Under the pieces are notes generated by a model. That model worked only from the letters and a program-made list of their open reading frames with translations, had not been told where the DNA came from and did not search any database. Positions 26,822 through 64,000 of a stretch of 64,000 nucleotides of DNA are shown here, in pieces. This DNA comes from a virus, in the IMG/VR virus record IMGVR_UViG_3300028284_000004, positions 3,304-67,303 of that record; one strand, given 5' to 3'. The position numbers and the translations under genes are program-made. The stretch's first letter is position 1. Every line of letters begins with the position of its first letter.

Positions 26822-26898
<77 letters not shown>

Positions 26899-28829: not shown

Positions 28830-28866
28830 AAGGGCTTCTATGTATTATATAGGAGCCCTTTTTTTT
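28830..28866 (+). terminator. rho-independent terminator
   Basis: AAGGGCTTCTATGTA/TATAGGAGCCCTT stem followed by a T-run. Confidence 0.85.
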
Positions 28867-28884: not shown

Positions 28885-28892
28885 TATAAATA
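28885..28892 (+). promoter_or_regulatory. T4-type late promoter
   Basis: TATAAATA between the terminator and the lysozyme gene. Confidence 0.75.
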
Positions 28893-28927: not shown

Positions 28928-29371
28928 ATGAATCGTGAATCTATCTATGAACAATTGAAAATTGATGAAGGCGTAGTCTATGAAATCTATGAAGATCACC
29001 TTGGATACGCAACGTTCGGTGTTGGCCACCTTGTATTGGAAAGTGACCCTGAGTTTGGTCAAGATGTTGGTACCCCAATCTCCGAAGATCGAGTCAGAGA
29101 GTGCTTTGAAAAAGACCTTGACACAGCAATCTCAGAATGTGTTGTACTATACAGTGACGCATGGGAAGATTTCCCTGGTGAAGTCAAAGAAGTACTCGTC
29201 AACATGCTCTTCAACCTTGGACGTCCACGTTTAACAAAGTTCAAGAATTTTAATAAAAATATTTTAGAAGGAAATTGGGCTGGTGCTGCTCCCGAAGGTA
29301 GAGACAGTATTTGGTATCGTCAAGTAGGTAATAGGGCTGAAAGACTTATGGAGAGATTAGAAAATCTCTAA
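28928..29371 (+). CDS. e: T4-type lysozyme (GH24 endolysin)
   Basis: DEG..Y.D.LGY.T.GVGH catalytic E/D/T, NM.FNLG, W..QV.NRA.RL. Confidence 0.9.
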   Translation: MNRESIYEQLKIDEGVVYEIYEDHLGYATFGVGHLVLESDPEFGQDVGTPISEDRVRECFEKDLDTAISECVVLYSDAWEDFPGEVKEVLVNMLFNLGRPRLTKFKNFNKNILEGNWAGAAPEGRDSIWYRQVGNRAERLMERLENL

Positions 29372-29391
29372 TTTATGAAATGAGGAATATT

Positions 29392-29967
29392 ATGTGTATA
29401 TCATATAACAAAGTTGGATTGGTACTGCTATGGATTGTGATGTTAAGTGCATCAACAGCATTTGCACAAGAAGAAGCTTCTGATGTAATTACTACAGATT
29501 CTACTACACGAAGTACAGTAGATAGTAGAAGCAATTCGACTACTACTTTAAAGTCGCCCCCGGCTTCAGCAATTACACCAACGATTAATACGTCTAACTC
29601 AGACCTATGTACGTTTGGTGTAGCTGGTGCGATTCAAACGCAGATCCTAGGTATCTCAACGGGTACCCAGGTAACAGATGATAACTGTGAGAGACTTAAG
29701 CTTTCAAAAACCCTATATGATATGGGTATGAAAGTAGCTGCAGTATCAACTATGTGTCAGGACCCAAGAGTCTTTAATGCAATGATGATGGCCGGAACAC
29801 CATGTCCATATGATGGAATGATTGGTGCAGAGGCTAAAGCTGCTTGGGAAGTAAATGCTGAACAAAAACCAAATGCTGAAAAAGAAAAAGAAGGATTAGA
29901 AGATGGTACGAAGACCCTCTTGGGTGGTGCTGGCGTTGCTAGCCTGCTCCTCCTACTCCTACTCTGA
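29392..29967 (+). CDS. exported protein A: signal peptide, Cys-flanked beta-hairpin, C-terminal membrane anchor
   Basis: AFA cleavage site; C-TFGVAGAIQTQILGISTGTQVTDDN-C; second Cys pair; GVASLLLLLL tail. Confidence 0.75.
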   Translation: MCISYNKVGLVLLWIVMLSASTAFAQEEASDVITTDSTTRSTVDSRSNSTTTLKSPPASAITPTINTSNSDLCTFGVAGAIQTQILGISTGTQVTDDNCERLKLSKTLYDMGMKVAAVSTMCQDPRVFNAMMMAGTPCPYDGMIGAEAKAAWEVNAEQKPNAEKEKEGLEDGTKTLLGGAGVASLLLLLLL

Positions 29968-30778
29968 CGAAACAGTATTTGGTACTACTGGTAATGCTGC
30001 CAGTGATGGCTACAATTGGGTAATGACCAATATATTACCTCAACAAGCCGGATTAGCAGTAAACGGTGTAATCTATCAATACACAACTGTTAAGAATACT
30101 GAAGATGATATGGTGGTCAGTGTGCAGAATGAAAACGCACGTGGTAGTGGTTATATCTTTAGAGAAGTAGATGATTGGTCTGGTATACCTGGAAATACGA
30201 TTAATAAGGTTATACCGGTAAACAATATTGATATATCATATTGGGGCAGAGGTTCTATCGATTGGACAGGAACCGGAAATGTTGAAGATGCTAAGGTTAT
30301 TTACACGTATCAGTATGATCCGTGTTTTGACCCACAAACAGATCCAACGTGCCCAGGATACATTGATCAATTTGTTGTAGACTTACAGTCAGAACAAGTT
30401 GAGATAGTGGATCCATTAGATGATGATGTTATACAGGATGAACTTGATCGTAAAGGTGTTGATACCGAAGATGATGATCAGGAAGAACGTGATAATAAAA
30501 AAATGAAGTCCGAGAAAAAGATTGAAGAACGATTAGAAAAGATTTTAGGCATTGTTAATACTACACTGCTAGCAGCTGATGCTGTGGCAAAACATGAAGA
30601 GTTAATTTCAATTGCTGCAATACCTACATCTTATTATTCTACTATTCCTGGAGGAGTAATTGATGATGCCCCTAAATTGGCTGATTCAAATCTTCCGGAA
30701 AATAAAAATGCGTTAAGAGTTGGTTTAGCCCAACAAGTGAAGCATGAAAAATTGGTAGATCTACAGTATGAAAAATAA
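29903..30778 (+). CDS. exported protein B: beta-rich domain, CxxxxxxxxC motif, acidic stalk
   Basis: Signal peptide; YDPCFDPQTDPTCPGY; D/E-rich region. Confidence 0.75.
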   Translation: MVRRPSWVVLALLACSSYSYSDETVFGTTGNAASDGYNWVMTNILPQQAGLAVNGVIYQYTTVKNTEDDMVVSVQNENARGSGYIFREVDDWSGIPGNTINKVIPVNNIDISYWGRGSIDWTGTGNVEDAKVIYTYQYDPCFDPQTDPTCPGYIDQFVVDLQSEQVEIVDPLDDDVIQDELDRKGVDTEDDDQEERDNKKMKSEKKIEERLEKILGIVNTTLLAADAVAKHEELISIAAIPTSYYSTIPGGVIDDAPKLADSNLPENKNALRVGLAQQVKHEKLVDLQYEK

Positions 30779-30799
30779 CTTATAATAGGAGAACATAAA

Positions 30800-31318
30800 A
30801 TGTTCATCAAGAATAAAATTAAATTGTTCACTGCACTTACTGTAGCTTTTGCCGGCATTAATGCTATAGCTTCAGCCGAAGAAGTTCCGATTTCCGGAAC
30901 GGTATCTTCTAAGTGTGTAGTGACAACTGATACCGTTGGTGTGTTTGGTAACCCTGCACCTAGCGTATTAAGTACTGCTCAAGTCGATGGTGGTGTACAA
31001 CCAAGCATTCGATACGATGTAATTCAAGCTAACTTCTATAAAGCTAGGATAATCGCTCCAAATAATTTCTCTGAAAGCCCTTCGCTTAATGATGTAATTA
31101 ATTGGACCGGCAATGTTAGTGTTGGTGAAGTATCTGATGCAGCTATGTCAGCATATGATACTAACAAGATCCAATATGATAACGTAACTGAAGTTGATTT
31201 GACTGTTGCTGGTAGTACATGGTTTACTGTTGACTCAACTGCTACTTATGGATATGATAAAGCTCTACCTGCTGGTTCATACCGTGCAGTTGTTGGTGCA
31301 GAGTGTATTGCTAACTAA
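30800..31318 (+). CDS. exported protein C, pilin/fimbrial subunit-like
   Basis: AGGAG RBS; ASA signal site; VPISGTVSSKC N-terminus; PAGSYRAVV C-terminal strand; terminal Cys pair. Confidence 0.6.
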   Translation: MFIKNKIKLFTALTVAFAGINAIASAEEVPISGTVSSKCVVTTDTVGVFGNPAPSVLSTAQVDGGVQPSIRYDVIQANFYKARIIAPNNFSESPSLNDVINWTGNVSVGEVSDAAMSAYDTNKIQYDNVTEVDLTVAGSTWFTVDSTATYGYDKALPAGSYRAVVGAECIAN

Positions 31319-31692
31319 TGTTACGCTTTATTATGGTATTAACAATGTTTCTGAGTGGGCCAGCAATGGCCCACCAGTTTACTCCGACGTATCCTAAATT
31401 AGATAGGTCATATGTTCCGGGTGTAATGAAAACGGTGATGGAATTATTTAATCTTCGAAGCGATGTTGAATACTATGAAATAGCAGTATTTGATAAAGAT
31501 TGGAATAAAGTTCCCTTTGCCACACCAGCAAAGATCATTAATGTAAAACATCTTAAAACCAAAAGGTTTGATGTGTTTATTCGAGATAAAGATATCTCAA
31601 GGGCTCTGTATGTGTGTACAAAGTCTAAACTGATTGTGAACGGATCAGCAATAACTTCAGTATCTTCGAGGATCTGTTCAAAATTTAAATGA
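31318..31692 (+). CDS. exported protein D, Ig-fold / PapD chaperone-like single domain
   Basis: AMA signal site; FTP..MELFN....YYEIAVFD.DW beta pattern; C-terminal Cys pair. Confidence 0.5.
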   Translation: MLRFIMVLTMFLSGPAMAHQFTPTYPKLDRSYVPGVMKTVMELFNLRSDVEYYEIAVFDKDWNKVPFATPAKIINVKHLKTKRFDVFIRDKDISRALYVCTKSKLIVNGSAITSVSSRICSKFK

Positions 31693-31700
31693 GTAATATA

Positions 31701-32144
31701 ATGAGAATTAAGTTAACTATATTTATGTTGATGATGACGGTAGGTAAAGTATATGCCGATTCGAGTTCTTTGAATCTTAATATACCTAGCTCGCCACAGA
31801 GTTATCAATCAGATCGTATTAGAGCCGATAACGTAGAATGTTCTATGGCTATTGGTTCATCTACAAACGTCGAATTTGGTGTTGTAGGTATTATAAATCA
31901 GAATGATCCCTTTAATAATATGAACGGGAATTCAATGGATTCATCGTTATATAATAATAATAATGATCTGGTAAAAGATGTTGGTGTATATGCAAAGATT
32001 ACTATTCCAATCGGTGCACCAAAAGAAAGACTTAATTGTAATACATTGTACCAACTAGAGCTCGAGAAGAAGCGTCTAGAAGTAATGAAACTAAAACAAG
32101 AAATACAAAATCTACGAACCTTAAAGTTCGAGAATGACGGATAA
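31701..32144 (+). CDS. exported protein E: amphipathic beta-hairpin plus coiled coil
   Basis: VYA signal site; NVEFGVVG..DVGVYAKITIPIG between two Cys; C-terminal heptads. Confidence 0.7.
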   Translation: MRIKLTIFMLMMTVGKVYADSSSLNLNIPSSPQSYQSDRIRADNVECSMAIGSSTNVEFGVVGIINQNDPFNNMNGNSMDSSLYNNNNDLVKDVGVYAKITIPIGAPKERLNCNTLYQLELEKKRLEVMKLKQEIQNLRTLKFENDG

Positions 32145-32153
32145 GGAATTAAC

Positions 32154-32648
32154 ATGGCAGAGTTTGAATTTGCGGGGATGAAGTTTAAAGGCGGTAAGAT
32201 GATGATCGTCTTGACAGCACTTTCCACGTTGGGCGGAGCTACATGGGCCGGTTTTGAGTTCTATAATGACTATAGGAACATGAAAGAGGTCGTAGAGAAT
32301 ATCGATGTAGGAGCTATTGAGGCTCGTAATGAAGTTATTGAAACCAAACTTAATAATGCAATTGAATATACTCGAGACATTAAGTCCGGACTACGTGACG
32401 ACATTATGGGTATCGAGAAGCAGGCAGATCGCGTAGAAGACATGGTTCGTGAATCAGAAGAAAAAGTACGAGATATGATAGATAAAGCCAATGGGCGATT
32501 TGATACAAAAAGAGATATGTTACAATCTGACTATGATGCCAAAGCCGCTGCCCTACGCAACAACTCAGATGCTAAGATCAAAGATCTAGAAGATCGATTG
32601 AACGCTAAACTCCAAAGAGCCTTGGATAATCCTCTATCGGATCAGTAA
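32154..32648 (+). CDS. protein F: N-terminal membrane anchor with long coiled coil
   Basis: AAGGA RBS; TM IVLTALSTLGGATWAGF; about 120 aa of heptads ending LDNPL. Confidence 0.75.
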   Translation: MAEFEFAGMKFKGGKMMIVLTALSTLGGATWAGFEFYNDYRNMKEVVENIDVGAIEARNEVIETKLNNAIEYTRDIKSGLRDDIMGIEKQADRVEDMVRESEEKVRDMIDKANGRFDTKRDMLQSDYDAKAAALRNNSDAKIKDLEDRLNAKLQRALDNPLSDQ

Positions 32649-32666
32649 AATAAATGAAAATAACTG

Positions 32667-32695
32667 TGTACAAAAGCTAATTTATATGTTATAAT
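32667..32695 (+). promoter_or_regulatory. early/sigma70-type promoter
   Basis: TGTACA-17-TATAAT with extended TG. Confidence 0.85.
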
Positions 32696-32728: not shown

Positions 32729-33142
32729 ATGTTATTCTTTATCAAAGGTCACACCAAGAATCGATCAGTGGTCGATCAATATATCATTAACCTAATGAAG
32801 CACTATCGGATGCATACTCGTAAGAGTGGTAAGATAACCGTCAGATTCACAAAGAATATGGGAGATGGATGTGAACAGTATCTAGCCTCATGTATTGGTG
32901 ATAAACGTAATGCATATATACTTATAAACAAAAATCAATCCTTCATGTCTCAGATGAGAGCCTTAGCTCATGAGATGGTTCATGCTAAGCAATTCCTCAG
33001 GGGAGAGTTAGATGAATCAGGTATAGTCTGGAAGGGTATCGATTGTGGCCACATGAAATATGGTACCGAACCATACGAAGTAGAGGCATATGGCTATGAA
33101 GATGACCTATTTATGGCTACTTTCCCCTTCCACCTCATATAA
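32729..33142 (+). CDS. zincin-like metalloprotease
   Basis: AHEMVH (HExxH) and PYEVEAY third-ligand motif. Confidence 0.75.
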   Translation: MLFFIKGHTKNRSVVDQYIINLMKHYRMHTRKSGKITVRFTKNMGDGCEQYLASCIGDKRNAYILINKNQSFMSQMRALAHEMVHAKQFLRGELDESGIVWKGIDCGHMKYGTEPYEVEAYGYEDDLFMATFPFHLI

Positions 33143-33149
33143 AACCCCC

Positions 33150-33203
33150 CTTATAACCAAAAAGTGTGACATTTATGTCACATATTCCATAAAAGTATAA
33201 AAA
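33150..33203. repeat. 54-bp direct repeat, copy 1, with internal palindrome
   Basis: Matches 34142-34195 at 53 of 54 nt; TGTGACAT-TT-ATGTCACA at 33165-33182. Confidence 0.95.
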
Positions 33204-33228: not shown

Positions 33229-33257
33229 TGTACATACCTTTCTAACTGTCGTATAAT
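33229..33257 (+). promoter_or_regulatory. early/sigma70-type promoter
   Basis: TGTACA-17-TATAAT. Confidence 0.8.
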
Positions 33258-34148: not shown

Positions 34149-34195
34149 CCAAAAAGTGTGACATTTATGTCACATATTCCAAAAAAGTATAAAAA
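34142..34195. repeat. 54-bp direct repeat, copy 2, with internal palindrome
   Basis: Matches 33150-33203; palindrome at 34157-34174. Confidence 0.95.
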
Positions 34196-34210: not shown

Positions 34211-34239
34211 TGTACATACTTTAAGAACCTTGGTATAAT
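34211..34239 (+). promoter_or_regulatory. early/sigma70-type promoter
   Basis: TGTACA-17-TATAAT with extended TG. Confidence 0.85.
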
Positions 34240-54197: not shown

Positions 54198-57100
54198 ATG
54201 ACTATATCCAAAGTAAAAAAATATAATGTTGCACCATATTATGATGACTTCGATGAAACTAAAAATTATCTTCGGATTCAGTTTCGCCCTGGTGTCTCTG
54301 TACAAGCCCGTGAGCTTACGCAAATGCAAACTGCGTTACAAGCTCAAATCGATAAGCTTGGACAATATAACTTCCAAGACGGTTCTAGAGCAGTTGGCGG
54401 TAAAGTTACCTTAGATATTAATTATGCATATATTAAATTAGAAGATACAGTTTCTGCATATGCTAGTGAATTCCTCGGTACAACTATTACTGGTGCTACT
54501 AATGGAGTGCAGGCTGAAGTATTAAAAGTAGTTGCTGCTACTGCCTCTGATCCAGCTACATTATATGTAAAATATATTAGCACCGGTACAGATAATGCAA
54601 CTAAGATTTTTGTTGCAGGTGAAACTATTACTTCTGATGCTGATATTGTTCGAACAGGAACAATCGGTGGTGGAGTATCTTCTACTATCCTAAATCCTAT
54701 CGGTGAAGGTTCAGCTATTCACGTTGAAGAAGGTGTATACTTTATCTCTGGCAACTTCGTATACGTTCCGGCAGAAACCCTTATTCTAGACAAATATATA
54801 AACACTCCAAGTTACATTGTTGGATTTAGTATTACTGAATCTATTGTGACTTCTGCTACTGATGTTTCATTGGTAGATAACGCATTGGGAACTCCTAACG
54901 AGTCAGCCCCGGGTGCACATCGTTATTCAATCTCTACAACTTTAATTAAAGAACCACTATCTCTTGCATCTAGAACTGTTGATAATTACATTCTTCTTAT
55001 GACAATTGAGAATGGTGTTATTCGTAAGCTTGATACTGACAAATTAGATACTGAACTTACTGCTAGACTTGCTCGTCGAACTTTAGAAGAATCTGGAAAT
55101 TATGCTTTAGGTCCATTCATCCTTGATATCAAAGAACACCTCAATGATGAAGCTGGTAATAACGGTTACCTTACTGCAGCTCAAGGTGGTAATGCCACTA
55201 AGATCGCGATCGGTATTGATCCAGAAATTGCTTATGTTGAAGGTTATAGAGTACAAAAAATCTCTACTGAACATGTTGAATTAGACAAGCCTCGATCTAC
55301 TTCTGATAAGAAACAAGTCACCGGTGTATCAACTTCTACTGGTTTTGGTAACTATGTCAAATTGACATTAGCTTCAACTATTGGTATTCCAGACGTTAAT
55401 GACTTCACTTCACTTGAACTTAAAAATACTGGTGGTACTGTAATTGGTACTGCACGTGCACGTGGGTTTGAGTATGATAGTTTTGCTCCTGCACACTTTA
55501 GATTATACCTGTTTGATATTTCAATGAATGTTGGTCAAGTATTTGCATCTGTTGCAAAAGCTGCTCAAACTGCAACTGGATTCTCGGCTGATCTATTGAA
55601 TGTTGGCACTAGGTTCGATGCTGGTAATAACCAATTGGTTTATAAACTACCTGCCGAAGCTATTGAAACTCTTACCAATGGTAACGATCATAGTGCTGAT
55701 TATGTCGTAAGAATTAAAAGAACTGGTTCTACTATTTCAAGTGGATCTTCGAACTTCACTATGCCTTCTGGTACTCAATTAAACGATGACGATGATATCG
55801 TATTATTCGCGTCGGGTACAACTATTAACATTGCTGATAGCCAAGTGTCTGGTGTTGGTACAAGTACAGTAACGATTACTGGTCTTGGTACTTATAACGG
55901 TGATACTCCTGTCGCAGTATTTAATATTAAGAAAACAAATGTTTTACCTAGAAGTAAAACCTTACGTTCTGCCGTAACTTCTACGATTTCATATTCTCCA
56001 GGAACTAATACATATAACCTTGGTAGATACGATATCCTAAATGTTACTTCTATTGTTGATTCGAATGGTACTGATGTAACCTCAAACTTTATTGTTGATA
56101 ACGGGCAACGAACTAGTTACTATGAAAATGGTAGTGTTACTCTCATCGGTGGTGCTACTCTTCCTACTGGTAACTTTGTAGTAACTTTCGACCACTTTGA
56201 ACATAACCAAGGTGACTACTTCTCTGTCGATTCATATCCGGATTACGATAACATTCCTACTTTTAGTACTCCTGAGGGAACAGTGGAACTTCGTGATTGT
56301 ATTGACTTTAGACCTACTAAGGCTGAAGCTGGCGCAACCACTGGATCTGAATTTAGTAGTGGTGATAATGCTTCTCGTGGTGATATGATTCAACCTGTTG
56401 GATTGGTATCTACTGATATTACTTTCTATATGCCACGAATTGATAAGATCTTCTTGTCAAAAGATGGTACGTATAAAGTAATTAAAGGTGCAGCTGCTAC
56501 AGTTCCTCAAGAACCAGAAAATATCTCAGAGGCTTTACACCTTTATACGATTAGAATTAATCCATATGTATTCGATGTTGGTGATATTATTCCGATCAAT
56601 GTTGATAACAAACGATATACTATGCGAGATATTGGTAAGCTAGATAAGAGAATTAAAACTCTTGAATACTATACTTCTTTATCTTTGCTCGAAAAATCTG
56701 CTCAAGATGCACAATTGTATGATGGTGCGGGTGCCCTAAGATTCAAAAATGGATTTGTTGTTGATGGATTCTATGGCCATAACGTTGGTGATGGATCGCA
56801 TCCAGATTATGGAGTATCAATCGATAAATCTGCTGGTATCCTAAGACCACAATTTGATGAGCGTGATGTTAACCTCATTCGTAAAGTTGGTGATACTGGT
56901 ACTGCGGTTAAATCTGCATCTGGCGGTATTATTACCTTACCATATACAACTGTAACTGAAATTGATCAACCATACTCTTCGTACGCTGAATTCGTCAATC
57001 CATACAATGTTGTTATCTGGGAAGGTATTGTACAACTCTCTCCTGAATCTGATAACTGGAAAGAAGTTGACCAAAGACCTGATATTATCATCGATGATAA

Positions 57101-59459
57101 TTCAATCTATGATCAGTTTGTAGCTCTTGCTGAAGCCGATGGCATCCTTGGTACCGTATGGAATGAGTGGGAACAGAACTGGACTGGCACTTCTGTTGCA
57201 TCTGTAACTACTGACAGATTAAATGTCGGTGGAGCTGAAGGTTCTAGATTGACCGGTACGCGAAAAGGCGGTGGTCGCGCTGTTGTAAATAAGGTTGTAA
57301 CTACTACTAACTTTACTGGTGAGTCTACGAGATCTGGTTTAAGAACAGAAGTTACTTCTGATATCCAATATAAAGAAATTGGTAACTATATCGTCGAAGT
57401 TAACTTTATCCCATTCATGAGATCAAGAGAAGTATTCTTTAAAGCTGAATTACTTAAGCCTAATACTCGTGTTTGGCCATTCTTTAATGGAACTGATATT
57501 TCAAATTATGCTAAACAAAAGACCTTTGTTGAGTTTACTGATGGTGCAGCCTTTGATACCTATGAGGGAACTACTGTTCACCCTGACGGATCATCTAGTT
57601 TGATTACTGATGCATCTGGTAAGGTTGAGGGATCATTTATTATCCCAAGGAACTCTGTGCTTAAGTTTAAGACTGGTAATCGTGAATTTAAACTTACGGA
57701 TTCTAATACTAATGTCGATGATGATTCATCTACTAAGGCTTCTGGAAACTTCCATGCTCAAGGTATTCTTGAGACCGTACAGAAAACGATTGTTGCTACT
57801 AAAGTTCCTAGACTTTCAAGAACTCAGGTTACTGATAGTACTACTATTACAAAGACTGAACGCACTACTCGACATGATCTTGTTAAGTACTATGATCCAT
57901 TGGCCGAAACCTTCGTAATTAAAACTAAGGGCGGAGTATTTACTACTGCACTGGACCTCTTCTTTGAAGGAAAACCTGCGGCTGGTGGTGTACCGGTTTT
58001 GGTATCTATTCGTGAAGTTGAAAACGGTACTCCGACCCAAAGAGAGATTCCTGGAGCCTCTGCTGTCGTATATCCGGCATCAATCACTACATCGACTGAT
58101 GCATCGGTTGCTACTACTATCAACTGGCAATATCCTGTATATTTACAAGAAGGTGTAGAATACGCAATGGTCCTCATTAGTAACTCTGACAAATATAAAG
58201 TATTTGTTGCTGAGACTGGTGGATTTGACCTTACTAATACTACATACAGAATTATTAAACAACCATTTGATGGCGTGTTCTTTACTTCTGCTAATGCCTC
58301 TACCTGGACTCCGGAGCAAACTAAAGATCTTAAGTTTAAACTGAAAAGAGCTTCATTTACTGGATCTTCTGCTGAGATTAACTTGACTAATGATATCATT
58401 CCGGCTCGTAGATTATCGGCTGATCCGTTTGAATTCGTTGCTAATCCTTCGGCTACAACTTGTAAGATTAAGGTTATTCATAGAAACCATGGTATGTACA
58501 ATCCTGATAACTCTACAAGTGAGCACTCTGTCACAATTAGTGGAGCTACAGGAACAATCAATGGTGTTGCATCTTCATTGATTAATGGTACTCATACGAT
58601 TAGTGAAACTGAACTTGATTCATACCACATCGTGATTGGTTCAGTAGGAACTCCAGCACAAGCAACTACATTAAACGTACGAGCTGGTGGAGTGTCTATT
58701 AGAGCTACTGAGAACCAAATTTATAACGTATTGAACGTGAATGCTTCAACCTTAGAGTTCACTGGTCAAACTATTGATTACTTCCTTAGTGCAAGAACTG
58801 GTGGATGTACAGATCCTTCTTCGAATGTTGTTAACTATAATAACGTTAGTGAGCAAGCAATCTTGGCTAACTCTAATGTGTATACTCCAGTCCCATATGT
58901 TATTGCATCTGGAACAAATGAAACGGCTAGAAGTATTGGTAAGTCATTCAATCTAAGATGTGTACTGAATAATGGCGGTATTGAAAACCTATCTCCTGTA
59001 ATTGATTTAAATAGGACTTCAGCAATTACTGTTATGAATAGAGTTAATGATGCGACTGGTAATAGTGCTCAATATAGTGCACGCGGAACATTAGTTGCTG
59101 AAACTGCTGCCCAAAGTACTAGTAATAAAGCTAAATATATAACTAAGAAAATTCAGTTGAACGAAGAAGCTGATCTAATTGATGTGTACATTAATGCTAA
59201 CAAGCCTGATGGTGCAAACATTGATGTTTACTATAAAGTGACTGATGACAGTGCTAGTGACTTTGACTTGATTGGTTGGACTTTAGCAACATCTGATAAA
59301 GTTATTCCTACGAATAACAACGGTGTTTATTCTGATGTTCATTATGCGATTTCTCCTGGACTATCATTTGATGCATTTGCTATAAAGATAGTATTGAGAT
59401 CAAGAAATAGTTCAAGCGTTTCAACTGTTAAAGACTTTAGAGCTATTGCGACTATTTAA
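54198..59459 (+). CDS. large virion structural protein (DUF4815/VrlC-like)
   Basis: PYYDDFD, QARELTQ.Q, APGAHR, NKRYTMRDIG.L..RI..LEYYTSL, DPLAETF. Confidence 0.85.
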   Translation: MTISKVKKYNVAPYYDDFDETKNYLRIQFRPGVSVQARELTQMQTALQAQIDKLGQYNFQDGSRAVGGKVTLDINYAYIKLEDTVSAYASEFLGTTITGATNGVQAEVLKVVAATASDPATLYVKYISTGTDNATKIFVAGETITSDADIVRTGTIGGGVSSTILNPIGEGSAIHVEEGVYFISGNFVYVPAETLILDKYINTPSYIVGFSITESIVTSATDVSLVDNALGTPNESAPGAHRYSISTTLIKEPLSLASRTVDNYILLMTIENGVIRKLDTDKLDTELTARLARRTLEESGNYALGPFILDIKEHLNDEAGNNGYLTAAQGGNATKIAIGIDPEIAYVEGYRVQKISTEHVELDKPRSTSDKKQVTGVSTSTGFGNYVKLTLASTIGIPDVNDFTSLELKNTGGTVIGTARARGFEYDSFAPAHFRLYLFDISMNVGQVFASVAKAAQTATGFSADLLNVGTRFDAGNNQLVYKLPAEAIETLTNGNDHSADYVVRIKRTGSTISSGSSNFTMPSGTQLNDDDDIVLFASGTTINIADSQVSGVGTSTVTITGLGTYNGDTPVAVFNIKKTNVLPRSKTLRSAVTSTISYSPGTNTYNLGRYDILNVTSIVDSNGTDVTSNFIVDNGQRTSYYENGSVTLIGGATLPTGNFVVTFDHFEHNQGDYFSVDSYPDYDNIPTFSTPEGTVELRDCIDFRPTKAEAGATTGSEFSSGDNASRGDMIQPVGLVSTDITFYMPRIDKIFLSKDGTYKVIKGAAATVPQEPENISEALHLYTIRINPYVFDVGDIIPINVDNKRYTMRDIGKLDKRIKTLEYYTSLSLLEKSAQDAQLYDGAGALRFKNGFVVDGFYGHNVGDGSHPDYGVSIDKSAGILRPQFDERDVNLIRKVGDTGTAVKSASGGIITLPYTTVTEIDQPYSSYAEFVNPYNVVIWEGIVQLSPESDNWKEVDQRPDIIIDDNSIYDQFVALAEADGILGTVWNEWEQNWTGTSVASVTTDRLNVGGAEGSRLTGTRKGGGRAVVNKVVTTTNFTGESTRSGLRTEVTSDIQYKEIGNYIVEVNFIPFMRSREVFFKAELLKPNTRVWPFFNGTDISNYAKQKTFVEFTDGAAFDTYEGTTVHPDGSSSLITDASGKVEGSFIIPRNSVLKFKTGNREFKLTDSNTNVDDDSSTKASGNFHAQGILETVQKTIVATKVPRLSRTQVTDSTTITKTERTTRHDLVKYYDPLAETFVIKTKGGVFTTALDLFFEGKPAAGGVPVLVSIREVENGTPTQREIPGASAVVYPASITTSTDASVATTINWQYPVYLQEGVEYAMVLISNSDKYKVFVAETGGFDLTNTTYRIIKQPFDGVFFTSANASTWTPEQTKDLKFKLKRASFTGSSAEINLTNDIIPARRLSADPFEFVANPSATTCKIKVIHRNHGMYNPDNSTSEHSVTISGATGTINGVASSLINGTHTISETELDSYHIVIGSVGTPAQATTLNVRAGGVSIRATENQIYNVLNVNASTLEFTGQTIDYFLSARTGGCTDPSSNVVNYNNVSEQAILANSNVYTPVPYVIASGTNETARSIGKSFNLRCVLNNGGIENLSPVIDLNRTSAITVMNRVNDATGNSAQYSARGTLVAETAAQSTSNKAKYITKKIQLNEEADLIDVYINANKPDGANIDVYYKVTDDSASDFDLIGWTLATSDKVIPTNNNGVYSDVHYAISPGLSFDAFAIKIVLRSRNSSSVSTVKDFRAIATI

Positions 59460-59662: not shown

Positions 59663-62600
59663 ATGGCTCATACAAAAGAAACTACAGTACTTAGAGGTAA
59701 TACCTTAGAGCAATGGAGACAACGTACAAATAAGATCTCTTATGATCTAGGTGCGGTGAATGAACTGCATTCAGATTTTACTGATAGTATTTTAAACTTT
59801 ACTGCAACTGCAGATCAAACTAATTTTTACGATGCTGGCTTATCAATTGGCTTAGCTGCTGAAGTAACTTTAGATAATACCGCAGGGTCTATTATTCTGG
59901 CCGGCGATCATACTGCACTAGATGCTTCAATTGTAGCTGGCGAAAAGCTTTTCCAAGGTATCCTAGCTGCGAAAACCTGGGAAGCAACCATTGTAGCTGT
60001 TACTGATAGAAAAATCTTAGTTACTCAATCCACCGGCGTGTTCGATGCTGCTGAAGAATTAGTACTTACTAGCGATACTAATGTTACTATTGCTGCCTCT
60101 AATATCTCTTCTCTTATAGCCGAATCTTATGAAGTTGGATATGTAGAACTATATACGAATGGAGTTGAACGTGCACAGGCTTTAACTACTGTTGGATTTC
60201 ACCTTCCTCCTTATGTTTCAAGAATCAACCTGACTGGAAGCCCTACAGTTCCAGCATCCTTCGTTGAAGGCGCTACAATTTATCAGGGGACACTTGGATC
60301 TGAAACATTTATTGGTAAAATACTATATGTTGAAGGCAGTACTGCCATCCATATTAAATCAGTAACTTCGGGATCCTTTAGTACTTCTGTAATGGTTAAG
60401 GTTGGAAGCGGCGATACAAATAATCGTGTCCTTGCTGCTAACTTGGACACTTATTCTACCATTGACCAAGATCATGCTAGTATGATTGAACTACATTCAC
60501 CTGCTGATGCTGGTGATATTATTAAGCTTGCCTATTATAATACTATAAGAGCTTTAAATGAGCTAGCAGATGATATTGGTACTATTGAAAGTCTTACGAC
60601 TACTGCAACAAATCTTGTTGCTGGCGTAAATGAGCTTGATGCTGAAATCGGTAATACTACTGAATTCTCTTCAGTATCAACAACAAATGATACCGTATCT
60701 ACTGCAATCCAGAAATTACATACCGAAATCGGTGATATCACTGCAATTGATGCATTGGTAACAAATGATACTTCTCTTGTCGAAGCTTTGAATGAGCTCC
60801 AAGGGGATATTGGTAATAAGAGTTCACTTACTACTGCTGCTAAGGGTTCACTTGTTGCTGCAGTGAATGAACACGAAACTGATATCGGTAATATGACATT
60901 TACTGGTCTAGATGCTCTAGACGTCTCGGCTGCCATTCGTGAATTAAGAATTGATATCGGTGACGTTACTGCTGCCAATATGGGTACTACTGCGTCAAAC
61001 TTAACTGGCGCAATGCTTGAATTAGAAACCGAAATTGATACTCTGAATACTAGAGTTGAACCCACTCAAGCCTTCCATGCTAACTTTGGTTCTGATACTA
61101 TCATGGATGGTATCAATGAATTGATGACAGACCTCGGTGATGTTACTGCTGCCAATATGGGTACTACTGCTGCTACAGTCGTTGGAGCAATGCTAGAGCT
61201 TGAGACTGAAATCGATACACTAAACACCTATACCGGTGTTTCAACAGTCCTAAATACTACAGCTGAAGACCTCGCAGCTGCAATCAATGAGCACGAAACT
61301 GATATCGGTAATATGACATTTACTGGCCTAGATGCTAATAATATTTCAGCAGCAATCAGGGAATTGAGAGTTGATCTTGGTGATGTTACTGATGCCAACA
61401 TGGGTACTACTGCTGATACGGTCGTTGGAGCAATGCTTGAACTAGAGACTGAAATTGATACTTTGAATACTCGCGTAGAGCCTGCTCAAGCGTTTAATGC
61501 TTGGTTTGATTCTGATACTATTATGGATGGTATTAACGAACTAGCCACTGAAAAATTAAACCTAGCCTCGAGTACTACTCAGACAATTAACTCTGACGTC
61601 CAAATGACAACCGGTAATGTCTTTACCATTCCATCCGGTGCTACCCTTGATATTGATGGTACATTGCTAATTGGTGGTGGTGCAGGTTCTACTCTAAGCT
61701 TTGATACTGCATTTATTGAGCTCGCTTCAACCGCATCGCTCGAAGGCATTGAAGTTGATCGATCTAAAATTACTGGTGTTGCAGTAGCAACCGCGGTTAA
61801 ATCTAAGCTACAATGGAATGAAGGTAAAGTCGGAACTGGTGCATCAAATACCTCGCATAGAGGATGGCAACTTGTAGGTCTTACTAACGAGTCTACTCCT
61901 GTAGCTTCTACTGCTGATGTTGTAACTTTCTATAATGCCAAAGATCTTGTTTCGAATAATACCGAAACTAATATGACAGTTACTTGGGATTCTGCAAATC
62001 AAAACTTTGATTTTGCTATCAACCCTTCTATTTCTATTACTAACGTAACTGCTTCTGCCACACTTACTGGTGGTCATGTTGCTACTGGAACTATGGCAAC
62101 TACTGGCAATGTTACTATTGGTGGTAACCTTACTGTTAACGGTACTGCGACATATATTAATACCGAAACTCTAACAGTAGATGATAATATTATTGTCCTA
62201 AATGATAATGTTACTGCTACTCCTACAGAGAATGCTGGTGTTGAGATTGAACGTGGTACTGGAACGAATGTTTCATTACTATGGAACGAAGCAAGCGACC
62301 GTTGGACATTTACAAATAACGGTAGTACCTTTTATAACATCCCGGTTCCTTCTGAATACGATAATTACGTAGCATGGACAATAGTTGATGGTGATGGTAG
62401 CTCATATGCTATTACTTCTGGCGATGCATTAACAATTGCTGAAGGCAATGGTATTGATTCGAACTTTAGTGCTGATGATGTATTAACTATTACCAACACA
62501 AAACCATTCGATAGTATCGGTATTGTTGATGATGATGGTACTACAGTTAATATGTCAAATGGTAATACCTGGAAGATGAATGAAGATGCTGGCTCTGGTA

Positions 62601-64000
62601 TTAGTATGAATATTAATCATACTGACATAACCGGCCCTGCTTATGGAACAACCTTTAGTATTACTAATACTGATAGAGGTTCTTCTCAGAATATCTTTAA
62701 GACCTTTACTGTTGATGATACTGATACTGAATACAACTGGTCTGCTACCGGTTCGATTGTAGCAGATAATAATGCTGATACTGCAAAATTTGTTAGTGGT
62801 AACGCAATCAATATTGATGTTGATCCTGGGAACGATGCTATTAGAGTATCACACGTCGACACTTCTACTTTAAGTGGAACTTATGGCGGTAATAACAATG
62901 GTGTAGTAGTTGAAGATATTACCGTGGATTCGAATGGCCACGTTACGGCGGTTGGAACCCGCGACCTCGACGGCCGATATGACAATTATTCTAATTGGTC
63001 ATTGTTTGTCGACGGTGTTGATAAAGATAACGTCACAAGCGGAGAGAAAGTCGACTTTAAAGCAACTGCTCCTTTGAGTGTTGCTCATACAGTTTCGAGC
63101 GGTAATGTTCTTACCTTTACTCATGATGATTCTGGAGTTACTGCCGCGACTTATGGTACTACTGGTGCTGAAGACGGTAGATACATTAAAGGTATTACTG
63201 TTAATGCGAAAGGTCACATTACTGCAATTGCCGCTGATGACTTTGATGATCGATATAACAACTATTCTCACCCTAATCATAGTGGTGATGTAACATCTGT
63301 TGGTGATGGTTCAACTACTATCGGCAATAATAAAGTTACCTTTGCTAAGATGCAGGATATTGCTAGTCAAACATTTATTGGTAGAAATACCGCAAATGCT
63401 GGAGACCCACAATCATTAACTGCAGCTACTGCTAGAACTATTTTGAATGTTGAAGATGGTGCTAATAATTATAAATTTAAGGTCTCTGCAGACGGTACGG
63501 CTGGTACTTCTGATATTACTAATGGTAATACCTTAGCATTTACTGGTGGAACATCGATCGATGCCACAAGAGTTGGTGATACTATTACTATCGCACATAG
63601 CGATACTTCGTCTGTTGCGGATCTAGCATCGGATAATTCTGGTAATACATTTATCCAAGATATTGGCTTCACCTTCGATACTCATGGTCACGTAACTGGA
63701 GCTACGGCTTCAACCGGAACTGTGTCAGTTGCAGGTTGGACATTAGACGGTGGCCTCGTATCTGGGACGAATTCAGATGCTCCTAATATTGCCAACAACG
63801 GTGTACTTCTTATTGATGAACTTAATACTGGTATTGTACTTGATGTTCATGATCCTGGTACTGGTAGTGGTGTATTAAAAATTGGTCATGCCGATACTTC
63901 AAGTCAGGCATCAGTAAATAATAGTGGTAGAACTTATATTCAAGATATTACTCTTGATACATTTGGTCATATCACTGCTATTACTTCTGCGACTGAAACT
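59663..64000 (+). CDS. giant tail fibre / fibritin-like protein, 3' truncated (over 1400 aa)
   Basis: ATG at 59663 (MAHTKETTVLRGNTLEQWRQRTN..); frame runs off the window, explaining its absence from the ORF track; IG....T...L..A.NE coiled-coil repeats and T.D..GH.T fibre repeats. Confidence 0.8.
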   Translation, partial: MAHTKETTVLRGNTLEQWRQRTNKISYDLGAVNELHSDFTDSILNFTATADQTNFYDAGLSIGLAAEVTLDNTAGSIILAGDHTALDASIVAGEKLFQGILAAKTWEATIVAVTDRKILVTQSTGVFDAAEELVLTSDTNVTIAASNISSLIAESYEVGYVELYTNGVERAQALTTVGFHLPPYVSRINLTGSPTVPASFVEGATIYQGTLGSETFIGKILYVEGSTAIHIKSVTSGSFSTSVMVKVGSGDTNNRVLAANLDTYSTIDQDHASMIELHSPADAGDIIKLAYYNTIRALNELADDIGTIESLTTTATNLVAGVNELDAEIGNTTEFSSVSTTNDTVSTAIQKLHTEIGDITAIDALVTNDTSLVEALNELQGDIGNKSSLTTAAKGSLVAAVNEHETDIGNMTFTGLDALDVSAAIRELRIDIGDVTAANMGTTASNLTGAMLELETEIDTLNTRVEPTQAFHANFGSDTIMDGINELMTDLGDVTAANMGTTAATVVGAMLELETEIDTLNTYTGVSTVLNTTAEDLAAAINEHETDIGNMTFTGLDANNISAAIRELRVDLGDVTDANMGTTADTVVGAMLELETEIDTLNTRVEPAQAFNAWFDSDTIMDGINELATEKLNLASSTTQTINSDVQMTTGNVFTIPSGATLDIDGTLLIGGGAGSTLSFDTAFIELASTASLEGIEVDRSKITGVAVATAVKSKLQWNEGKVGTGASNTSHRGWQLVGLTNESTPVASTADVVTFYNAKDLVSNNTETNMTVTWDSANQNFDFAINPSISITNVTASATLTGGHVATGTMATTGNVTIGGNLTVNGTATYINTETLTVDDNIIVLNDNVTATPTENAGVEIERGTGTNVSLLWNEASDRWTFTNNGSTFYNIPVPSEYDNYVAWTIVDGDGSSYAITSGDALTIAEGNGIDSNFSADDVLTITNTKPFDSIGIVDDDGTTVNMSNGNTWKMNEDAGSGISMNINHTDITGPAYGTTFSITNTDRGSSQNIFKTFTVDDTDTEYNWSATGSIVADNNADTAKFVSGNAINIDVDPGNDAIRVSHVDTSTLSGTYGGNNNGVVVEDITVDSNGHVTAVGTRDLDGRYDNYSNWSLFVDGVDKDNVTSGEKVDFKATAPLSVAHTVSSGNVLTFTHDDSGVTAATYGTTGAEDGRYIKGITVNAKGHITAIAADDFDDRYNNYSHPNHSGDVTSVGDGSTTIGNNKVTFAKMQDIASQTFIGRNTANAGDPQSLTAATARTILNVEDGANNYKFKVSADGTAGTSDITNGNTLAFTGGTSIDATRVGDTITIAHSDTSSVADLASDNSGNTFIQDIGFTFDTHGHVTGATASTGTVSVAGWTLDGGLVSGTNSDAPNIANNGVLLIDELNTGIVLDVHDPGTGSGVLKIGHADTSSQASVNNSGRTYIQDITLDTFGHITAITSATET
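60866..61540 (+). repeat. internal tandem duplication in the fibre gene (420-bp period)
   Basis: Near-identical blocks at 60866/61286 and 61091/61511; GDVT.ANMGTTA sub-repeat at 60959, 61136 and 61379. Confidence 0.85.

Follow-up and report, generated by a model that had tools for sequence, protein, structure and literature searches.

A conserved six-gene block of marine phages encodes exported-looking proteins that probably form an envelope structure

The DNA analysed here, called the window, is a stretch of 64,000 nucleotides from a virus. We found that it carries a cassette from a marine T4-like phage, six genes (A to F) packed on the plus strand at 29380-32648 (Table 1). A and B overlap by 65 nt, C and D by 1 nt and D and E by 4 nt; gaps of 21 nt and 9 nt separate B from C and E from F. 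An earlier note on this DNA had started A at 29392, and an in-frame ATG is indeed present there, but the open reading frame opens four codons upstream. The same note described six consecutive, packed genes behind a lysozyme and a late promoter. This arrangement was borne out by the ORF map, by the match of the lysozyme to PF00959 and by the copy of TATAAATA at 28885. The lysozyme scored 33.9 bits against PF00959, above the curated cut-off of 22.3, and thus belongs to that family; its PHROG matches were to endolysin and tail-lysozyme families. The terminator-like hairpin, TATAAATA, the lysozyme gene and A to F follow one another without an intervening promoter-like gap. The window holds 16 copies of TATAAATA against 9.1 expected.

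Table 1. Features of the cassette and its immediate flanks (positions in the window)
Feature	Position	Strand	Description
Intrinsic-terminator-like hairpin	28830-28860	+	14-bp stem followed by a T run; closes the upstream unit
TATAAATA, T4-type late-promoter motif	28885-28892	+	36 nt 5' of the lysozyme start codon
T4-type lysozyme, endolysin candidate	28928-29371	+	PF00959 Phage_lysozyme, E 4.6e-8; opens the apparent late transcription unit
A	29380-29967	+	195 aa ORF; signal peptide, Thr/Ser-rich linker, four-Cys domain, acidic linker, hydrophobic C-terminal tail
B	29903-30778	+	291 aa ORF; signal peptide, beta-rich domain, acidic stalk, conserved C-terminal region
C	30800-31318	+	172 aa ORF; signal peptide, loose N-terminal strand, Ig-like beta-sandwich
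D	31318-31692	+	124 aa ORF; signal peptide, single all-beta domain, seven strands
E	31689-32144	+	151 aa ORF; signal peptide, Cys-bracketed strand-like pair, C-terminal helix-like region
F	32154-32648	+	164 aa ORF; short N-terminal head, hydrophobic segment, long helical region
Sigma-70-like TGTACA-N17-TATAAT	32667-32695	+	directly after F; probably opens the next unit

All 104 related viral contigs have the genes in the order A-B-C-D-E-F over whatever part of the cassette they cover, and all six ORFs were complete in 83 of these loci. The flanks were variable among the 51 loci of at least 9 kb. Pairwise distances were correlated at 0.73-0.88 within A-E and at 0.56-0.72 between these proteins and F; F thus co-varies less with the other five, and in some relatives an inserted gene splits it from E. 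Co-occurrence and gene order had been proposed as a check on the cassette, and its recurrence in about 100 viral contigs in identical order, which passes that check, goes beyond chance. The control signals were less constant. Of 69 unique relatives, 20 carried TATAAATA in the 200 nt 5' of A; the background is 0.017 per 200 nt. Approximately 13-14 relatives, judged by eye, carry a perfect TTGACA-N17-TATAAT before A in place of the late motif, and timing is therefore not uniform among the relatives.

Searches of species genomes returned only 8 matches, all on contigs of 1.7-28 kb in MAG bins with five unrelated taxon labels, and the ESM Atlas clusters for A were 100% viral. The six genes are a conserved, phage-specific block. 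Near-identical cassette DNA was found in 18 seawater sequencing runs. The B family comprises 1694 clusters (90% identity) at E ≤ 1e-3; among the 120 clusters listed none had a descriptive name or a Pfam domain, and a few bore the source label 'hypothetical protein'. The C family is small, with 110 representatives among 1.84 billion. None of A to F matched Pfam (searched at E ≤ 1 for D), NCBIfam, PADLOC or PDB sequences, and their PHROG matches were to families of unknown function only, with no structural family among them. The cassette is common, yet its six families have neither a name nor a known fold assignment. In relatives, the island flanking the cassette encodes a Phage_OMP protein (PF24653), a lipoprotein and an EF-hand membrane protein.

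The earlier note had claimed signal peptides and even numbers of mature cysteines for five of the proteins. We scored signal peptides with a home-made heuristic, not SignalP, on the unique full-length members of each family. Positives were 60/62 for A, 70/71 for B, 66/69 for C, 47/66 for D and 60/63 for E; for several D genes the ORF picker had mis-called the start or cut it short. As a control, 5 of the 51 other plus-strand ORFs of at least 100 aa in the window were positive. The N-termini of A-E have canonical n-h-c regions with small residues ahead of the conserved mature start. Four cysteines are invariant in A (C77, C103, C126, C142) and two each in B (C141, C150), C (C39, C169), D (C100, C120) and E (C51, C117), and the alignment of the F family has none. 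Both parts of the claim held up, and A-E look exported and disulfide-bonded. Because A-E combine signal-peptide-like N-termini with even invariant cysteines and F has a membrane segment, the products most likely act in the infected cell, at its periplasm and outer membrane, rather than as part of the virion.

The conserved four-Cys domain of A spans approximately residues 57-150, and the hydrophobic C-terminal tail, absent from the earlier reading, was found in 62 of 62 members. A matched phrog_20531 (3e-14) and has homologues in the Pelagibacter phages HTVC115P, HTVC023P and Mosig (1e-44 to 1e-50). In B the beta-rich conserved domain holds the Cys141-Cys150 pair, the acidic stalk is variable and the conserved C-terminal region terminates in H..(M/L)V..QY. 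B matched HTVC023P gp46 weakly (E 0.0017), and its C-terminal motif was also seen by eye in HTVC115P gp53. We rejected B as a lipoprotein, the Cys of 'LLAC' not being conserved. F has a hydrophobic segment at approximately residues 16-37 and an invariant C-terminal L.NPL motif; its homologue HTVC115P gp49 was detected at 2e-18 (tblastn) and 4.1e-34 (profile). The membrane anchor and long coiled coil proposed for F stood in part: the hydrophobic segment and a long helical region are present, but hydrophobic periodicity beyond the segment peaks at 3.6 residues, as in a plain alpha-helix, with low power at the 3.5 and 7 of a coiled-coil heptad.

For C and D we obtained AlphaFold2 models with mean pLDDT of 89.5 and 89.6. 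C was modelled as an Ig-like beta-sandwich in which residues 27-38 form a loose N-terminal strand outside the fold, at lower confidence. The top Foldseek rows for C were chaperone-usher pilins, CfaB (E 1.0e-3), the PapG pilin domain (1.9e-3), FimG and CsuA/B, all marginal at E 1e-3 to 1e-2, with 0 matches at E ≤ 0.001. The best VIA-align matches were instead Ig-like domains of Gram-positive MSCRAMMs and pilins (FnBPA, SdrD, ClfB, BcpA), led by the staphylococcal adhesin FnBPA with Z 7.9 and rmsd 3.2 over 106 residues and followed by SdrD with Z 7.5. Z values of this size are background for models that lack a clear match; identity is 4-13%, and the adhesins come from other kinds of organisms and follow other secretion routes. 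The comparison of the predicted model with these adhesins thus shows a common beta-sandwich arrangement, not kinship. Chaperone-usher pilins were absent among the 50 rows listed in either of two VIA-align lists. C had no Fimbrial or SCPU Pfam match (PF05229 was not found), and as an SCPU, or Csu-type archaic, pilin it was rejected: comparing the C alignment with 12 genome-derived SCPU domains in hhalign gave a probability of 0.4% and E 0.13. The pilin likeness claimed for C is weak; it draws support from the modelled Ig-like sandwich, the loose N-terminal strand and the marginal Foldseek rows.

D was modelled as one all-beta domain, a small beta-sandwich of seven strands, and its mature N-terminus opens with a near-invariant His. 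It had been likened to a one-domain Ig chaperone. The small single domain agrees with this, but neither Pfam at E ≤ 1 nor the domain number points to a PapD-type chaperone. A two-domain PapD-like chaperone (PF00345 plus PF02753) was rejected for D given its 124 aa, the lack of a Pfam match and the single-domain model. In E, Cys51 and Cys117 enclose two amphipathic strand-like segments flanking a hypervariable loop, and a C-terminal helix-like region follows. No other stretch of the alignment is as variable or as gapped as this central loop, whose hypervariability suggests that it may be surface-exposed. E matched phrog_37374 (1.9e-7). At the loose cut-off of E ≤ 1, tblastn with E returned 183 Vibrio phage records, the strongest at 6e-6, and the listed rows lay mostly between 1e-3 and 3e-2; homology was confirmed only for pVp-1_0079 (hhalign 97.9%, 5.5e-13) and NVP2275O_140 (97.9%).

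Parts of the cassette were found separately in cultured phages. Phage pVp-1 encodes homologues of C, D and E in the same order, pVp-1_0077 (hhalign 96%, 2.9e-9), pVp-1_0078 (94%, 1.4e-7) and pVp-1_0079 (97.9%). The cultured Pelagibacter podophage HTVC115P encodes homologues of A and F and a B-like protein. By these alignments the cassette is shown to join two older modules, A+B+F of Pelagibacter podophages and C+D+E of T5-like Vibrio phages. Less certainly, the C+D+E trio occurs in jumbo Vibrio phages too: in jumbo phage 2.275.O, hhalign was firm for E (97.9%), moderate for D (62%) and weak for C (20%). Both modules tend to lie repeatedly near endolysin genes. In pVp-1 a holin (phrog_860, 2.1e-68) and an M15 endolysin are found two genes after the trio; in HTVC023P a peptidase M15 lies three genes after the A/B pair, in CRP-810 a lysozyme two genes after the A-like gene, and in one group of relatives a PG_binding_1 protein three genes after F. 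The cassette-adjacent lysozyme was retained in 7 of 104 relatives, and the majority have no endolysin adjoining the cassette. Neither the composite origin nor the lysis-gene neighbourhood of the modules was part of the earlier reading.

We compared the cassette with chaperone-usher pili (type 1, P, CFA/I, Csu). Like their subunits, C is modelled as a small, putatively Sec-exported, Ig-like protein with a loose N-terminal strand, a C-terminal strand of G.Y.A.V type and a likely disulfide, and a small beta-sandwich gene, D, adjoins it. In contrast to these pili, the cassette is encoded by lytic phages only, PapD has two domains where D has one and lacks a PF00345 match, and the usher (approximately 800 aa, PF00577) is absent. 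The absence of an usher, already remarked on in the earlier note, was confirmed: the longest ORF of the cassette is B with 291 aa, none is usher-sized, and the relatives have no large inserted ORF either.

Since the cassette proteins match no described protein family, we suggest that the six products probably form an envelope structure of a kind not yet described. The reading that we favour, at a probability of roughly 0.4, is that the phage uses parts of its own to make a structure that spans the envelope or sits on the surface, pilus-like in principle though not of the chaperone-usher kind. C, an Ig-like protein whose N-terminal strand is free, would serve as building block or adhesive unit, with D, the small beta-sandwich, as its periplasmic partner. 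E may form oligomers in the outer membrane, using its Cys-clamped amphipathic hairpin together with its C-terminal helix. The inner-membrane side would be held by A, through its C-terminal anchor, and by F, which has an N-terminal anchor and a helical rod. B would be a component with a stalk, located in the periplasm or at the surface. Use would probably be a late envelope event, either surface remodelling or envelope weakening around lysis. Against this reading, an outer-membrane channel of known type, an ATPase and an usher are all absent, and passage of subunits across the outer membrane depends wholly on the putative roles of E and A. The pilin resemblance of C is marginal, some relatives have early-type promoters, and F is less tightly linked. 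A more specific version, which we regard as improbable, holds that in at least three lineages of lytic marine phages the infected cell is made to assemble a phage-encoded surface fibre or trans-envelope structure without usher, secretin, CsgG or ATPase. In it, C would polymerise by strand exchange with the aid of the one-domain D, and export would go through an oligomeric outer-membrane channel of a new kind, formed by the Cys-clamped hairpins of E and anchored to the inner membrane by A and F.

A doubtful but tenable alternative is that the cassette or its modules act at the last step of lysis. F would be i-spanin-like and E or A/B would replace a lipoprotein o-spanin, so that the outer membrane is weakened or fused, or lysis timing tuned. 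The lysozyme lies directly 5' of the cassette under the same late motif, and each module has endolysins nearby, of different families and in contexts independent of one another. The layout of F resembles that of an i-spanin, as in two-component spanins of the lambda Rz/Rz1 type: an N-terminal membrane segment and a predicted periplasmic helical rod, with an endolysin adjoining the cassette. In addition, the account of the related phage Melnitz in PMC9004378 proposes that its curli pore serves lysis timing. However, F matched no known spanin family in Pfam or PHROG by sequence. There is no conserved lipobox in A-E and no embedded plus-strand ORF of at least 40 aa within F, the cassette is without a lipoprotein partner, and four further exported proteins have no spanin counterpart. 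Six genes with Ig-like subunits are unlike any known spanin. The scarcity of adjoining endolysins and the early-type promoter before A in some relatives also argue against a lysis role, and neighbourhood within a variable late region is weak evidence. We consider it unlikely that the exported proteins alter the infected-cell surface separately, by receptor masking, superinfection exclusion or keeping progeny off debris, and are grouped only as a mobile island. Phages do export proteins of this sort, for example T4 Imm/Sp and T5 Llp, and in relatives many other envelope proteins are encoded in the flanking island. The modules are found apart in other phages, and the hypervariable loop of E would fit a surface arms race. 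Yet a joint function is suggested by the invariant gene order, by stop codons that overlap the next start and by divergence that is correlated over 83 loci. Known exclusion genes act early, and a late promoter shared with the endolysin would be late for exclusion.

That the products are virion or cytoplasmic proteins, with hydrophobic N-termini that are not signal peptides, we hold to be very improbable. A late motif precedes the cassette, as with structural genes, and podophage A-like genes lie within or beside structural modules. Against this, canonical n-h-c regions precede a conserved mature start in five families, even numbers of invariant cysteines are restricted to these five exported proteins, and no PHROG structural family was matched. 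Hardly credible at all is a divergent curli (type VIII secretion) module. Related pelagimyophages and Melnitz carry such a module, also in a variable region that separates replication from structural genes, and aggregation and lysis timing have been proposed as its purposes (PMC7029224, PMC9599517, PMC9004378). The curli modules of these phages and of HTVC023P-type podophages are, according to those papers, likewise multi-gene exported sets foreign to the host. But neither CsgG (PF03783) nor CsgF (PF10614) was found in the whole record at E ≤ 1, on which ground the known pelagimyophage module was rejected, and five of five large records that carry the cassette, 53-89% complete, gave no CsgG match at E ≤ 0.01. 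A-F show neither a Pfam match nor curlin homology, C is modelled as a globular beta-sandwich, not a curlin repeat, and the families and folds are others. The earlier statement that no such system had been described holds insofar as the cassette differs from curli, but the related phages do carry a curli module in a like region (PMC7029224, PMC9599517, PMC9004378).

If C, D and E did form an usher-free assembly route, the phage-built envelope structure would be a new way to build Gram-negative surface structures. Taken with the curli modules that related phages carry, the cassette would imply that phages abundant in the ocean routinely equip their hosts with foreign envelope machinery, with a bearing on lysis, phage-phage competition and possibly cell aggregation and carbon export. 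Tractable phages with the modules are in culture, namely T5-like Vibrio phages and the Pelagibacter phage HTVC115P, and the proposal can be tested at the bench now.

Two metatranscriptome runs contained matches to the locus. We found two perfect 151-nt contigs across the B/C junction and, in the same runs, seven contigs of 92-97% identity in or beside the cassette, five of them within A-D. This is a weak sign that the cassette is transcribed, DNA carry-over being possible. The TGTACA-N17-TATAAT motif that follows F was also found at 33229 and 34211.

The parent IMG/VR record is 67 kb long (CheckV completeness about 40%), and the window is 64 kb of that record. Ribonucleotide reductase and baseplate genes were found in the record, and the baseplate wedge protein of the window is 39-41% identical to its counterparts in Methylophilales phage Melnitz and Pelagibacter phage HTVC008M. 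Judged by its gene content, the window belongs to a T4-like marine phage. Six ORFs, which we refer to, with their products, as A to F, lie between the nucleotide-metabolism and structural genes. An earlier note, a reading of the DNA alone, had described a six-gene exported cassette behind a lysozyme gene and a T4-type late-promoter motif (late motif), and we found each of these elements. Since a strong terminator-like hairpin, the late motif and the lysozyme gene lie upstream and a sigma-70-like site follows F, the lysozyme gene and A-F look like a single late transcription unit.

Features of the cassette and of the window around it
Feature	Position	Strand	Product	Identity or placement	Signal-peptide-like N-terminus	Invariant Cys
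tRNA-Arg	26822-26898			anticodon TCT		
Strong terminator-like hairpin	28830-28860			upstream of lysozyme gene		
Late motif	28885			TATAAATA, between hairpin and lysozyme gene		
Lysozyme gene	28928-29371			PF00959, directly upstream of A		
A	29380-29967	+	195 aa		60/62	4
B	29903-30778	+	291 aa		70/71	2
C	30800-31318	+	172 aa		66/69	2
D	31318-31692	+	124 aa		47/66	2
E	31689-32144	+	151 aa		60/63	2
F	32154-32648	+	164 aa			0
Sigma-70-like site	32667-32695			TGTACA-N17-TATAAT, just 3' of F		
ORF	32729-33142			immediately after F		
Hairpin	33165-33182			TGTGACATAAATGTCACA		
Second copy of site	33229-33257			TGTACA-N17-TATAAT		
Hairpin	34157-34174			TGTGACATAAATGTCACA		
Third copy of site	34211-34239			TGTACA-N17-TATAAT		
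Very large ORF	54198-59459		1753 aa	after baseplate genes		
Very large ORF	59663-64000		>1446 aa	after baseplate genes; runs off end		

Two of the three copies of the sigma-70-like site downstream of the cassette lie about 50 nt 3' of an identical hairpin, and hairpin and promoter-like site together look like a regulatory cassette that is repeated between small genes. The matches of the ORF immediately after F are weak and metallopeptidase-like (phrog_16532 at 1e-13, with DUF6782 and Peptidase_M91 falling below their cut-offs); the ORF is retained 3' of the cassette in a few close relatives only. The window has a sole tRNA, and its two very large ORFs probably encode fibre or baseplate-associated proteins.

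Searches of viral contigs returned 25 loci with C as the query and 80 with B (the best 80 of 107). Conservation of gene order had been proposed as a check, and tblastn with the six proteins gave the order A-B-C-D-E-F on one strand in all 104 loci as far as the fetched stretch extends, with no altered order or absent internal gene among them. All six were complete ORFs in 83 loci. When families were compared across 51 stretches of at least 9 kb (50 loci and the window), only these six were common to nearly all (A, B, C and F in 51, E in 50, D in 49), the shortfall of D and E being due to ATG-only ORF calling, and the flanking genes varied. One extra gene lies between E and F in some lineages. 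Pairwise divergences were correlated at 0.73-0.88 within A-E and at 0.56-0.72 with F.

The claim of export also held. Using a home-made heuristic, not SignalP, that requires a basic residue together with a hydrophobic 9-mer and with small residues at -3/-1, we found signal-peptide-like N-termini in most members of families A-E, compared with 5/51 of the other window ORFs of at least 100 aa; the count for D is lowered because several D starts were mis-picked by the ORF script. The number of invariant cysteines is even in every exported family, which fits folding in an oxidising periplasm. All members of family A (62/62) have a hydrophobic C-terminal tail. In F, a short head at the N-terminus is followed by a hydrophobic segment and by a helical region whose periodicity is 3.6 residues, and an invariant L.NPL motif lies at the C-terminus.

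The overlap of A and B, 65-71 nt long, is itself conserved among relatives. In most of them the same nucleotides (window 29903-29967) encode the hydrophobic tail of A in one frame and the signal peptide of B in another; 11 loci have an overlap of only 4 nt, with tail and signal peptide both still present. We dropped B as a lipoprotein because the Cys in its apparent lipobox is unconserved. Mature D is predicted to begin with a near-invariant His (residue 19, window 31372 onward) in the motif H-x-x-T-P-T-Y-P, which the D-like protein of phage 2.275.O shares and pVp-1_0078 lacks. This His is reminiscent of the N-terminal-His copper sites of copper-binding proteins; no Pfam support for this likeness was found.

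A-F gave nothing above noise against Pfam, NCBIfam and PADLOC, and no credible PDB sequence match came from profile searches with the alignments of A, B, C, D and E. The PHROG matches of A and E are families of unknown function. In the ESM Atlas, A matched viral clusters only, all without names, B had no usable match, and neither had a structure model. The B family comprises 1694 clusters at E <= 1e-3; among the 120 listed none had a descriptive name or Pfam domain, a few being labelled 'hypothetical protein' by source, and contigs carrying the family are about 150 kb at most. The C family is very small, with 110 representatives, for the most part fragments, among 1.84 billion; its distant full-length members (P0205, P0218, P0228, P0234) share the layout of C and likewise lack Pfam domains. 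In species genomes, C relatives were found on only eight contigs of 1.7-28 kb, all in MAG bins. A bacterial origin of C was dropped, since short contigs under five unrelated labels (Melainabacteria, Aquiluna, Rhodobacteraceae, Saprospiraceae, Pseudomonadales) read as mis-binned phage DNA. We also rejected A and E as paralogues, and C, D and B as mutual relatives, because hhalign aligned their signal peptides only. A-F are an exported, phage-specific and co-inherited gene set.

Cultured phages gave no match by megablast of the cassette or by tblastn of B and C. The four-Cys domain of A is found in Pelagibacter podophages HTVC115P, HTVC023P, HTVC202P, HTVC033P and Baldr and in myophage Mosig, with weaker matches in Roseobacter phages and rows for Achromobacter and Ralstonia phages at E 3e-5 to 3e-3 and query coverage 34-56%. 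The gene 3' of the A-like gene in these phages is B-like: its product combines a signal peptide and a beta domain with an acidic stalk and a C-terminal region. By eye, the C-terminus of HTVC115P gp53 is the B motif H..LV.MQY, statistical support for B-likeness being weak; hhalign probabilities for B against HTVC023P gp46 and Mosig_00201, and for E against the Mosig_00201 C-terminus, were 0.3-6%, insignificant though suggestive. HTVC115P gp49, which lies four genes beyond B-like gp53, is clearly homologous to F (4.1e-34). Between and just after its B-like and F-like genes, gp52 and gp48 (L107:5857-7221, gp52-gp48, in the fetched HTVC115P stretch) are small proteins with an N-terminal membrane segment and a helix, and this region is a possible lysis or membrane gene cluster.

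Homologues of C, D and E are present, in order, in the T5-like Vibrio phage pVp-1 (genes 0077, 0078 and 0079; hhalign 96%, 94% and 97.9%), followed 3' by a small lipoprotein, a holin and an M15 endolysin. The lipoprotein, gene 0080 (L137:4221-4424 in the fetched pVp-1 stretch; 52-67 aa, lipobox LMISGC), directly after the trio, is a candidate o-spanin or exclusion lipoprotein. In jumbo Vibrio phage 2.275.O, D-like, E-like and possibly C-like genes are adjacent to one another; the match of E was firm (97.9%), that of D moderate (62%) and that of C weak (20%). At a loose E <= 1, tblastn with E touched 183 Vibrio phage records as candidate carriers of a homologue; the best E was 6e-6 and most listed rows were 1e-3 to 3e-2. 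Since cultured phages carry the parts separately, we read the six-gene cassette as an A-B-F module fused with a C-D-E module.

C had been noted for hallmarks of a chaperone-usher pilin. Its model is a beta-sandwich (mean pLDDT 89.5) that leaves out residues 27-38, the stretch with the alternating VPISGTV, where confidence is lower. Foldseek gave no match at E <= 0.001; its top rows were chaperone-usher pilins (CfaB 1.0e-3, PapG pilin domain 1.9e-3, then FimG, CsuA/B and FimF), with staphylococcal adhesin domains and CBMs interspersed. The best VIA-align match was FnBPA (Z 7.9, rmsd 3.2, 106 residues), a level typical of models without a clear relative, and no chaperone-usher pilin was among the 50 rows listed in the wide search or second look. 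Profile comparison of the C alignment with 12 SCPU domains gave a probability of 0.4%. On these results C is a sandwich of Ig-like type that resembles adhesins or pilins, and kinship with pilins is at most possible. D, likened in the earlier note to a one-domain Ig chaperone, is modelled as one seven-strand beta domain (pLDDT 89.6), which agrees with a single domain and rules out a two-domain PapD-type chaperone.

Near-identical DNA was present in 18 seawater runs (at least 92% of sampled words). Two metatranscriptome runs had contigs in and beside the cassette: two perfect contigs of 151 nt at 30697-30975 came from one run, and seven contigs of 92-97% identity, five within A-D and two just upstream, from the other. 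These contigs span parts of the cassette, the uncovered parts being uninformative, and as evidence of transcription they are weak, since DNA carry-over is possible.

We tentatively propose, with a probability of roughly 0.4, that A-F build an envelope or surface assembly of the phage's own making, by a mechanism that we infer. C would be its Ig-like subunit and D the periplasmic partner of C; E would be an outer-membrane oligomer with its hypervariable loop facing outward, A and F would be anchors in the inner membrane, and B a stalked component. Of the overall interpretation in the earlier note, the export, the unit character and the Ig-like C stand, and the pilus mechanism, the pore of A and E and the bridge of F are conjecture. 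Since the cassette matched no known system by sequence, nor convincingly by fold, we rate it as outside known kinds, with fold models covering C and D only and the assembly itself predicted.

A serious rival is that the cassette is a lysis accessory. In five independent contexts the two modules lie close to endolysins, which belong to different families, and F has an i-spanin layout. However, there is no lipoprotein partner, the adjacent endolysin is missing in most relatives, and an early-type promoter precedes A in about 13-14 relatives (by eye), with the late motif in 20/69; we find this role possible but rather doubtful. That the products are separate surface-modifying or exclusion proteins, and not one assembly, is a third reading, possible but doubtful. 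Beside the export signals of A-E, a virion or cytoplasmic location of the cassette proteins is unlikely.

Published work (PMC7029224, PMC9599517, PMC9004378) places a curli cluster (CsgG and CsgF, in some cases with CsgA/B) in a comparable variable region of related pelagimyophages, Melnitz and HTVC023P-type podophages, and debates its purpose as aggregation ('sibling capture'), import or lysis timing. The window's record had no match to CsgG or CsgF, and five large cassette-bearing records (53-89% complete) had none to CsgG. By its genes the cassette is not curli, a curli variant being unlikely, and from the missing matches it may be an alternative to curli within its lineage. Literature searches on pelagimyophages, phage curli, SAR11 phage spanins and phage-encoded chaperone-usher fimbriae found the curli work and no description of the six families, which may appear as hypothetical proteins in the supplementary gene tables of PMC7029224 and PMC9599517. 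In relatives, the variable island around the cassette is rich in further envelope proteins (for example L031:7780-8103, L098:7649-7975, L011:6887-7270 and L098:8770-9585, in fetched loci). Among them are a beta-barrel of the Phage_OMP family (PF24653), an EF-hand protein that has membrane segments, an endolysin-like PG_binding_1 protein and, directly 3' of F, a lipoprotein.
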